Origin: Candidatus Dormiibacterota bacterium
GTDB taxonomy: Bacteria > Chloroflexota > Dormibacteria > Aeolococcales > Aeolococcaceae
NCBI GenBank assembly: GCA_019236085.1
Contig: JAFAJR010000091.1
Location: 1 to 30,322 of the forward strand
Reading direction: 5' to 3'
Length of the DNA: 30,322 nucleotides
Shown piece after piece: positions 1 through 1,575 of the stretch; position 1 is the first letter of the stretch; every line of letters begins with the position of its first letter. Under the pieces are notes generated by a model that was not told the origin of the DNA, did not search any database, and saw only the letters and a program-made list of their open reading frames with translations. The position numbers were made by a program, and so were the translations under genes.

Positions 1-55
1 CGGTGGCACGACGGACTTCGTGATCGACGACACCGCGCTGAACCAAGCGTCGTGA
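1..55 (+). CDS. 3' end of an upstream gene (partial), possibly the C-terminal beta-sandwich domain of a secreted protease/hydrolase
   Basis: The frame starting at nt 2 reads GGTTDFVIDDTALNQAS* (TGA 53-55). It resembles the 'TSFVIDDTAL' C-terminal motif of actinobacterial-type secreted peptidases. Only 17 codons are visible. Confidence 0.45.
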   Translation, partial: GGTTDFVIDDTALNQAS

Positions 56-126
56 TTACTTCCGGCGCCGCGCACCGCGCGCGGCGCCGGGAACCTCTCT
101 TGGCCGGCGGTCGTATTCATCACGTG

Positions 127-564
127 ATGCGATGGGTCGCCGGTGCAGCGGCTGTGGGTGGCGTGCTGCTGCTCAGCGGGTGCGGCGCTGGCACGAGTGC
201 GCCGCCGCCAACTGCCTCGCCGTCATCCGCGACGCCAGTGCAGTGCGGCAGCGCGACTGCACGCGGCAACACGCTGGTGGTTTCCGGCAGTGCTGCGCTG
301 ACCTGCTTTGAAGCGGCGCTGTCCCACTGCACCGCCGCCACCTTCAAGCTGCAAGAGTTCGGGGTCGACACCGGGGTTATTCATTCGTTCACTGTGCTCG
401 GCGGCAATCCCTGCGGGGTGCGCGACGATCACAGCTTCTACCGGGCGCCGCAGTCACCGTCGCCGTCTGTGAGCGACACGTGCGACGGCGTGGCCATTCA
501 GGGTCCTGAGGTCTCGCTGCTGGCGTGCGGCAGCGAGGGAACCATCACGCTTCCGCCTGGCTAG
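127..564 (+). CDS. Cys-rich hypothetical lipoprotein
   Basis: From ATG 127: MRWVAGAAAVGGVLLLSGC is a signal peptide with lipobox LSGC. A Pro/Ser/Thr linker follows, then a ~110-aa domain with 6 Cys. The ORF-track start at 52 is probably over-extended. Confidence 0.75.
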   Translation: MRWVAGAAAVGGVLLLSGCGAGTSAPPPTASPSSATPVQCGSATARGNTLVVSGSAALTCFEAALSHCTAATFKLQEFGVDTGVIHSFTVLGGNPCGVRDDHSFYRAPQSPSPSVSDTCDGVAIQGPEVSLLACGSEGTITLPPG

Positions 565-565
565 T

Positions 566-757
566 TCATGTTGACTTGTCGTCGCCGTTGTCGTCGACCG
601 CGTCTGTAAGGATCAACCCGAGCTGCCGCGCCATCGCCTCTGCAGTTTGCAGCGCAGCTTCCTCCTTCTCCTCTTCGGTCATCTGCTGCCAATTCGGCGG
701 AAACCCGACGAAGGCGCGCGTGGGATGCCGATGCTCGCTGTTGTCTGTGTTGGACAT
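566..757 (-). CDS. 63-aa acidic microprotein of unknown function, downstream of a SAM riboswitch
   Basis: Strong SD (GGAGGAG, 764-770) 6 nt before the ATG. Non-random amphipathic sequence GFPPNWQQMTEEEKEEAALQTAEAMARQLG. The start codon lies within the riboswitch pseudoknot. Confidence 0.75.
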   Translation of the reverse strand: MSNTDNSEHRHPTRAFVGFPPNWQQMTEEEKEEAALQTAEAMARQLGLILTDAVDDNGDDKST

Positions 758-858
758 AGGTTGCTCCTCCGGCGGAACCGCATCCCCGTGAATCGGGTGG
801 GCACCTTGCGTGTCCAGCGCAGGTTGCCGGGCGACACTCGTCGCCGCTCTTGATGCGA
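751..858 (-). ncRNA. SAM-I/IV variant riboswitch (translational)
   Basis: The minus strand reads CGCAUC-AAGAG-C-GGCGAC-GAGU-GUCGCC-C-GGCAACC-UGCG-CUGGACA-CGCA-AGGUGCC-CA-CCCG-AUUCA-CGGG-GAUGCG-GUUCC-GCCGGA-GGAGC-AACCU-AUGUCCA. P1 CGCAUC/GAUGCG, J1/2 AAGAG, P3 with the GCAACC/GGUGC SAM-binding core, P4 and P5 are all present. The L3 UGGACA can pair with the 3' UGUCCA (PK-2). There is no kink-turn in P2, which fits SAM-I/IV rather than SAM-I. Confidence 0.88.
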
Positions 859-863
859 CGCCA

Positions 864-892
864 AGTCTACTCGATGGACTTCACGACGTCAC
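864..892 (-). promoter_or_regulatory. Sigma70-type promoter for the riboswitch transcript
   Basis: Minus strand GTGACG (892-887), 17 nt, TAGACT (869-864). The predicted TSS (~857-858) coincides with the 5' end of P1. Confidence 0.6.
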
Positions 893-1264
893 GAGGCGAA
901 CCCGTGCGGCTGTGACGGCTGCGGATGCCAAGTGCCGATCGGCAGTCACCAGCTCACAATTGAGCGCTTCGGCGAGGGCGAGGTACGTGGCGTCGTATGC
1001 CGTGAGATTGTCGCGCAATGACCAGATGCGCTGCAACAGCGGCCGGATGTCGTAGCGATTCAGCTCGATGTGCGGCCAGACGCGGATGGCAGCCTCAGCA
1101 GTCGCAACGCCGACCCGGCCCAGCCGGACCTGCTTGCGGAGGGCACTCACAAGCTCTGCGTCGATCGTGAACGGAGCGCACAGCGTCTCGCTCGACATGA
1201 TCGTCGCGGCCTCCCCGTCCTGGAGCAGCGCCCACAGCGCCGCCGACGCGTCAAGGACGATCAA
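881..1264 (-). CDS. vapC: PIN-domain toxin (VapC family)
   Basis: TTG start at 1264 gives MIVLDASA... with the PIN acidic tetrad: LDAS, AEL, YDATY, TAD. It overlaps the antitoxin stop by 14 nt. Confidence 0.9.
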   Translation of the reverse strand: MIVLDASAALWALLQDGEAATIMSSETLCAPFTIDAELVSALRKQVRLGRVGVATAEAAIRVWPHIELNRYDIRPLLQRIWSLRDNLTAYDATYLALAEALNCELVTADRHLASAAVTAARVRLVTS

Positions 1265-1511
1265 TGGAGGCGTTGATCTGCCGATCCCGCTCCTCTCGAG
1301 CCTCGTGGATGGCAGCCACAATCTCGTCAGCCGTCAGCGACAGGTCAGCTTTGGGGATGCTGGCCAGCAGCTCGGCATTGCGGCGGCGCATAGCTGCGGC
1401 GGTCAGCTCGCGGATGGCGAGGGTATTCACGGAGATGCCGTCGCGTTCCGCCATTCGCTGGAGGCGCTGGACCACCTCCGCCGGCACATTTCTCACATAC
1501 AGCGTGGCCAT
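1251..1511 (-). CDS. vapB: Ribbon-helix-helix antitoxin (FitA/VapB-like)
   Basis: MATLYVRNVPAEVVQRLQRMAERDGISVN is the typical FitA-like RHH N-terminus. It lies directly upstream of the PIN toxin. Confidence 0.85.
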   Translation of the reverse strand: MATLYVRNVPAEVVQRLQRMAERDGISVNTLAIRELTAAAMRRRNAELLASIPKADLSLTADEIVAAIHEAREERDRQINASIDRP

Positions 1512-1514
1512 CTC

Positions 1515-1536
1515 TGCTAGCACGATGCTAGCATCG
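1515..1536. promoter_or_regulatory. Putative vapBC autoregulatory operator overlapping an extended -10 element
   Basis: Two TGCTAGCA palindromes (1515-1522, 1526-1533) lie 11 bp apart. The second is inside the perfect 14-bp palindrome CGATGCTAGCATCG (1523-1536). The minus strand contains TGcTAGCAT (extended -10). Confidence 0.7.
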
Positions 1537-1575
1537 CCCGTTTCGCGGGACAACCGGCGGACAGCTGCTCGCTCT

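Follow-up and report, generated by a model that had tools for sequence, protein, structure and literature searches.

Near one end of the window, by which we mean the whole 30,322-nucleotide stretch of a Candidatus Dormiibacterota contig analyzed here, the minus strand likely carries a self-contained cassette made of a SAM-I/IV riboswitch and a single gene, which encodes a 63-residue member of a microprotein family and would be expressed when SAM is low. We put at roughly 60% the probability that this reading is right and that the link to SAM has been selected, as aptamers of three classes abut members of the family and no other gene runs in the same direction in four loci. The core of the cassette comprises the following elements, given by their positions in the window.

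747..861, minus strand: SAM-I/IV riboswitch aptamer (RF01725), with P1, a P2 without internal loop, P3, a 3' hairpin and a 3' tail.
811..816, minus strand: P3 loop UGGACA, 5' strand of the predicted pseudoknot and perfect complement of 751-756.
764..770, minus strand: Shine-Dalgarno sequence GGAGGAG, 6 nt upstream of the AUG, located from the cmscan alignment and the sequence.
751..756, minus strand: 3' tail UGUCCA, 3' strand of the predicted pseudoknot, overlapping the UG of the AUG and codon 2.
566..757, minus strand: gene of the 63-codon microprotein P0001 (ATG 757-755, stop 568-566), recognized by its coding signal, homologues and dN/dS.

A complete SAM-I/IV aptamer had been proposed here from the letters alone, together with an Rfam covariance-model search as the way to check it. 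That search (cmscan) returned a significant match to RF01725 at 747-861(-), with 51.6 bits against a gathering score of 41.1 (E 7e-6) and a span of model positions 1-99 of 99, not truncated. At the same site the SAM-I model reaches a sub-threshold 35.8 bits, the SAM-IV model has no match in the MAG, and a whole-genome search found this aptamer to be the only SAM-clan switch in the 2.07-Mb, 79%-complete assembly. Besides this full-length match above the gathering score, which places it with the SAM-I/IV riboswitch and the SAM clan (CL00012), the RNA has the SAM-clan core, consisting of P1, the AGAG motif of J1/2 and a P3 flanked by GCAACC and AAGGUGC. P1, P2 and P3 are all recovered in the minimum-free-energy fold, and in the cmscan alignment GCAUCAAGAG, GGCAACCUG, CAAGGUGC and GAUGC agree with the consensus at every letter. 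P2 is an uninterrupted 6-bp hairpin (GGCGAC/GUCGCC) devoid of the internal loop (kink-turn) of SAM-I and SAM-IV, and this is the feature that sets the SAM-I/IV variant apart (Weinberg et al., 2010; PMC2864571). The absence of this loop is shared with the described SAM-I/IV riboswitch (PMC2864571), and so is the pseudoknot between the P3 loop and the 3' tail. By our estimate, a 6-bp match between a 7-nt loop and a 20-nt tail has a chance expectation of ~0.007, and when the aptamer was compared with that of one relative, these two sequences had the pairing (GGACA/UGUCC in the relative) at the same model positions. A survey of 60 relatives found no SAM-I/IV aptamer besides this one (L003 1501-1611(-), genome G029, same family; 57.6 bits), which precedes a class-V aminotransferase (cysteine-desulfurase-like) gene; on its other side, our reading of the translations suggests Fur-family-like and katG-like genes. 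Also, a metagenome contig of run X3 contains a diverged second SAM-I/IV aptamer (5 mismatches and 3 gaps relative to window 774-856) with different flanks, which points to other carriers of the class in the same soil community.

Like other SAM-I/IV riboswitches, the aptamer holds the ribosome-binding site in its 3' part, in a translational OFF layout. The Shine-Dalgarno sequence (770-764) falls in the loop and 3' strand of the 3' hairpin (GUUC 778-775 / GAGC 766-763), the AUG (757-755) of the 63-codon ORF is covered by the predicted pseudoknot, and a scan of the minus strand found no terminator-like site either between aptamer and ORF or after the ORF. We are highly confident that this is a real SAM-I/IV aptamer, with a sequence that appears laid out as a translational OFF switch, and its RNA is an ordinary member of RF01725. 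From the placement of these elements, given by the sequence and the covariance model, we infer how SAM would be bound and how the switch would operate. When SAM is plentiful, the aptamer would fold, its 3' hairpin would hold the Shine-Dalgarno site, and the pseudoknot pairing the P3 loop with UGUCCA would overlap the start codon, thereby blocking translation of the 63-residue protein. When SAM drops, the ribosome-binding site would be freed and the protein made.

Riboswitch RNAs can also act in trans, as do SreA and SreB of Listeria, and the element could in principle be a SAM-dependent small RNA of that kind, next to an ORF that is merely incidental. That the unit contains no enzyme gene and that its aptamer is the only one of the SAM clan found in the genome would suit such a role. 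Nevertheless, the lack of a terminator between aptamer and ORF, the building of both Shine-Dalgarno and AUG into the aptamer, and the conservation of the ORF family across three aptamer classes make it extremely unlikely.

The cassette is delimited by the following features.

864..892, minus strand: promoter-like site read from the sequence, GTGACG (892-887), a 17-nt spacer and TAGACT (869-864).
52..564, plus strand: convergent gene with a lipoprotein-like signal sequence and no Pfam domain, which bounds the riboswitch unit.
881..1553, minus strand: vapBC-like pair, with a FitA-like RHH antitoxin (1251-1553) and a PIN toxin (881-1258/1321), from Pfam matches PF22513 and PF01850.

The promoter proposed in the sequence-only reading stands only in part: the hexamers and the 17-nt spacer exist as described, but the site is weak, with 8 of 12 consensus positions matched, and was not called by a promoter scan. 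It overlaps the vapC-like stop codon (883-881), and a promoter at 864..892(-) is plausible from its sequence. The same reading had correctly placed the end of the ORF 1 nt from the stop of a convergent gene (568-566 on the minus strand, 564 on the plus strand). Its corollary also holds, namely that the ORF cannot share a transcript with a met, cys or SAM-synthetase gene, given a convergent next gene across a 1-nt gap. SAM riboswitches are well studied, and their regulons are thought to consist of enzymes and transporters for methionine, cysteine and SAM. In contrast with the described members of the SAM clan, the switch in the window controls no gene for the biosynthesis or transport of these compounds, only the 63-aa protein. 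A search of 40 relatives yielded no orthologue of the convergent gene. Beyond the opposite end of the cassette lie the FitA-like RHH antitoxin, the PIN toxin and groEL, and the whole segment 1-1600, a contig end by groEL, looks variable, combining the orphan lipoprotein-like gene, the riboswitch cassette and the vapBC-like pair.

Several lines of evidence indicate that the ORF encodes a protein under constraint. Under a codon-usage model built from 181 long ORFs of this genome, the log-likelihood is +17.9 bits in the frame of P0001 and -7 to -49 in the other five frames; per codon, it equals that of the neighbouring vapB-like gene, and the GC contents of the three codon positions are 0.63/0.42/0.75. 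Pairwise dN/dS values among family members range from 0.23 to 0.53. Independent assemblies from several soil and rhizosphere metagenomes contain the same arrangement of riboswitch and ORF; the sequencing runs found to carry the locus were DNA runs only. Because of its homologues, codon signal and dN/dS, P0001 is very probably a real member of a conserved microprotein family.

This family is rare. A word-indexed protein search with P0001 alone as query returned only P0001, and a six-frame search of 60 close relatives yielded no homologue. An exhaustive phmmer search of 1.84 billion representatives recovered P0004 (68 aa, 55% identity) and P0005 (78 aa, 50% identity), with E-values of 1.5e-4 and 3e-4 and identities that apply to the centre of P0001. 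Profile searches added P0007, P0010 and P0013-P0017, as well as the fusion protein P0012, to which the family aligns with E 1.9e-11 in hhalign, while scans of genome and metagenome contigs contributed one and two new loci, respectively. The family thereby reaches ~13 distinct loci, encoding members of 55-87 aa that all come from uncultured organisms; carriers number 4 among 374 genomes of the class and 3 among 401 sampled from the phylum. Its core reads R-A-F-[VI]-x-[VIF]-P-P-[NG]-W-x2-[ML]-T-[DE]-E-[EQ]-[KQ], followed by a helix ending in A-[LM]-x-R-Q-L, and corresponds to residues 12-47 of P0001 in an alignment with P0004, P0005, P0007, P0009 and P0010; 14 columns are invariant among five family sequences. 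Outside the core, the tails are unrelated, variable and disordered. AlphaFold2, run on a shallow alignment, predicts a single helix at residues 28-45 (pLDDT ~80) and disorder elsewhere, and this model favours viewing the microprotein as a short binding module.

Pfam, NCBIfam, PHROGs and PADLOC contain no significant family for the microprotein; the PADLOC anti-phage defence HMMs gave no match at E<=0.1, and an ESM Atlas search returned nothing above noise. With the PDB included, none of these resources provided a clue to a partner or function; the only PDB profile match, a low-complexity helix match to the C-terminus of eL13, was disregarded. We found no description of the family in the literature on SAM riboswitches with small or hypothetical proteins, or on those of Chloroflexi. 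Being small and composed of a short extended segment followed by a helix, the microprotein recalls both the ribbon-helix-helix proteins of the MetJ type and the MbtH-like proteins. A ribbon-helix-helix identity (MetJ/Arc/CopG) was rejected on the AlphaFold2 model, a single helix (28-45) with no such fold, and on the absence of a Pfam RHH match. For MbtH (PF03621, for which >27 bits was required), the best score was that of P0004 (11.9 bits, E 0.16) and P0001 had none; P0004 shows a weak VPxGW-like resemblance, with no significant Pfam or NCBIfam match. A RiPP precursor was discarded since no riboswitch-linked locus has a co-directional neighbour gene; P0001, P0004, P0005 and P0009 contain no Cys. 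The phmmer match to P0002 (976 aa, tandem repeats) is a repeat artefact. Another protein of the representative library, P0003 (596 aa), is a repeat protein with SAFDKPVNWETMTDKQK units, in which four repeats of a 45-aa unit, SAFDKP[VD]NWE[TV]MTDKQK plus a helix, resemble the microprotein core (phmmer E 4.8e-6); its composition looks eukaryote-like. Finally, the C-terminal tail of P0014 (AARAAGGSDPAFDPGVGCETPSR; L025 1-802) almost repeats a segment of the upstream gene, which suggests a local duplication or a mosaic.

The sequence-only reading had itself raised the possibility that the ORF is what a deletion left of a met gene; a remnant of a cys or SAM gene, or an ORF arising by chance in GC-rich DNA, may be considered along with it. 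The sole other SAM-I/IV aptamer among the 60 relatives does precede a full-length gene, that of the class-V aminotransferase. The idea of a remnant was not borne out, because the relatives of P0001 are all stand-alone genes of 55-87 aa sharing the same core, and none matches any enzyme in Pfam; a chance ORF would not explain a codon signal confined to the ORF's own frame. Both versions are effectively refuted.

The link between the family and SAM is best judged from the other members. A SAM-clan aptamer of one of three classes lies directly upstream of a family member in 5 of the ~13 distinct loci, listed here with the protein, the aptamer class and its score.

Window, P0001: SAM-I/IV, 51.6 bits; AUG within the 3' tail of the aptamer.
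L005, P0004: SAM-IV, 68.4 bits; aptamer end 25 nt before the ATG.
L006, P0006 then P0005: SAM-I, 57 bits; aptamer end 6 nt before the first of two ORFs.
L009, L010 and L011, P0008 then P0009/P0013: SAM-I, 55.4 bits; tandem layout as in L006.
L015, P0011, a single ORF cut by the contig end: SAM-I, 55.7 bits; aptamer end 6 nt before the ATG.

In L006 and L015 the Shine-Dalgarno sequence lies within the 3' strand of P1. Where two ORFs stand in tandem, the family member is the second, preceded by a first ORF similar in layout; this first ORF (P0006, P0008) looks like a paralogue in the alignment, but an hhalign E of only 0.059 against the family profile does not establish it as one. The next downstream gene is convergent in the window, L005, L006 and L009, that is, in all four loci with downstream sequence, which leaves the small ORFs as the sole regulated products. 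Few genomes of the order have a SAM-clan aptamer, SAM-I/IV being found in 1 of 60 relatives and SAM-I in 4 of 40, with one copy each. Since such aptamers are so rare, the pairing of aptamer and family in 5 of ~13 loci and in three architectures cannot be chance. These five loci and three aptamer classes make it probable that the family has been selectively wired to low SAM in several lineages.

SAM control is not a property of the whole family, given that at least six homologous loci lack the switch. No Rfam match at E<=1 was found upstream of the homologues in L007/L008, L012, L025, L026/L027, L028/L029 and L030, the search having covered 160-180 nt upstream of P0007 in L007/L008; the riboswitch-less homologues are P0007 (L007/L008), P0010 (L012, a Chloroflexia MAG), P0014, P0015, P0016 and P0017. 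Likewise, fused or weaker family matches in G133 and G662 had no Rfam match at E<=1. The expectation that homologues would be consistently preceded by SAM riboswitches is thus borne out in five loci and three classes, but fails in at least six others. The sequence-only reading had named homologues without a riboswitch as a point against itself; their occurrence only weakens its claim.

The SAM-I/IV and SAM-IV loci (the window and L005) encode the two most similar proteins, which, in data too thin for proof, would fit switch and gene having been inherited together while the periphery of the aptamer changed. It may be that a single orthologous cassette switched between SAM-I, SAM-I/IV and SAM-IV architectures; if so, it would preserve in nature a record of class conversion within the SAM clan. 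Elsewhere in the same order, four loci of genus g25 (L031-L034, in G040, G047, G050 and G041) carry a SAM-I riboswitch of 59-65 bits with the Shine-Dalgarno sequence in the 3' strand of P1. Its target is a ~300-aa protein, the only Pfam match of which is TY-Chap3 (YbjN/T3SS-chaperone-like peptide-binding; E 1e-8), making it, as judged from its sequence, another non-metabolic target of a SAM riboswitch in the order.

The recurrent convergent layout raises the question of whether the main output could be RNA. According to this alternative, translation of the ORF at low SAM would let transcription enter the convergent gene, and the resulting antisense RNA would lower its expression. Convergence in four of four riboswitch-linked loci with downstream sequence, gaps as short as those of the window (1 nt), L005 (29 nt) and L009 (57 nt), and the lack of a terminator-like site on the minus strand after the ORF are all in line with it. 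On the other hand, no relationship links the convergent genes (one is the orphan lipoprotein-like gene, one is of unknown identity, and two encode permeases, of the BPD_transp_1 and ABC-2 types), the gap in L006 extends to 537 nt, and the conservation of the amino-acid sequence, with dN/dS <1, is left unexplained. We consider antisense control very unlikely; like the trans-acting RNA and the remnant, it explains less of the evidence than a cassette with the microprotein as its output.

The window copy also exists in nature as an allele from which the following segment is missing.

615..701, minus strand: 87-nt segment absent from a natural in-frame deletion allele, found in Logan contigs.

The deletion is flanked by direct repeats TCGGGTT at 708-702 and 621-615 on the minus strand; residues 19-47, and with them the whole conserved core, are gone, leaving an ORF of 34 codons. 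This allele was found among Logan contigs in three of four soil and rhizosphere metagenomes, with identical flanks that include the riboswitch. In two runs the deleted form is the only one assembled over this stretch, contigs being evidence of presence and not of absence. Part of the population can clearly do without the window copy, and this core-deletion polymorphism argues against an indispensable role in homeostasis for it. The cassette as a whole looks accessory because of the patchy distribution of the family (4 of 374 and 3 of 401 genomes), its variable surroundings by vapBC and the polymorphic loss of the core.

It may then be asked whether SAM matters at all to the microprotein, which could instead be a phage-derived or mobile-element accessory module without any sulfur or SAM role. 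Such a module would have landed behind a SAM riboswitch, or would travel with one, and would be dispensable and in the process of being lost in the window's genome. The links to phages lie outside the riboswitch-linked loci: a phage-type domain, phrog_17808, is fused to the module in G133, and in L028, within an operon where KYSxDQPRDxHGRF motifs recur, P0016 comes directly after such a domain, overlapping the stop of the gene that encodes it at its C-terminal end. Moreover, Atlas neighbours of the phrog_17808-type domain are mostly Uroviricota, the distribution of the family is very patchy, the window copy adjoins vapBC and the orphan lipoprotein-like gene, and the core-deletion allele is common in nature. 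Conversely, a chance landing does not explain why aptamers of three classes abut family members with the ribosome-binding site within the aptamer; dN/dS is <1 in riboswitch-linked pairs, and no phage genes were seen around riboswitch-linked loci. We regard a module with no SAM role as unlikely, though a serious contender. Its accessory component does not conflict with the cassette reading, as an accessory gene can be SAM-controlled, and an accessory or mobile-element origin is compatible with a real aptamer, a real family and wiring to low SAM.

The phage-like operon of L028 (1-2821) and of L018/L019 in G133 combines the KYSxDQPRDxHGRF repeats, the phrog_17808-type domain, the microprotein module and a GNAT gene; a second G133 copy of the phrog_17808-type domain and module appears frameshifted. 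The window's own genome has no phrog_17808 match.

As to what a SAM-controlled microprotein would do, its action would rely on the extended segment and one amphipathic helix, i.e., RAF-phi-x-phi-PPNW-xx-MT-EEEK followed by ~18 helical residues. We infer, at low confidence, that this module is most probably not an enzyme but an adaptor or inhibitor that takes up its fold on a partner protein. Binding to a partner so as to adjust the use or supply of SAM is a tentative proposal. The sequence-only reading had suggested MetK, a methyltransferase or a transporter as candidates; nothing was found to link the microprotein to any of them. A cyanobacterial glutamine riboswitch reportedly controls gifB, the gene of the glutamine synthetase inhibitor IF17, and offers the closest functional parallel to a circuit of riboswitch and microprotein. 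Both systems have a metabolite riboswitch with a small protein as its only output, and IF17 acts on the pathway of the metabolite that is sensed. They differ in that the glutamine switch is turned ON by its ligand whereas that of the window would be turned OFF by SAM, and the two proteins have no sequence similarity.

A more specific proposal, which we hold to be quite unlikely as it stands, makes the PPNW-MTEEEK microprotein a dedicated low-SAM effector that binds a partner protein, in either of two versions. First, by analogy with IF17, it may modulate the supply or use of SAM, for instance through MetK or a major methyltransferase. Second, it may be an alarm output in conflicts with phages, a version derived from the fusion of the module to a phage-type domain and from the depletion of SAM by some phages.

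The significance of these observations has its limits, in that the family is rare, comes from uncultured soil bacteria only, is not always linked to a riboswitch and appears dispensable in this population. Within these limits, the cassette is a known switch with a new class of output. Three SAM-clan classes, each with members of one uncharacterised microprotein family as only output, point to a protein-level layer of the low-SAM response that has so far gone undescribed. The family is also a test case for aptamer classes replacing one another before the same gene, and would lengthen, with a case from the SAM clan, the short list of circuits in which a riboswitch controls a regulatory microprotein, gifB being one.
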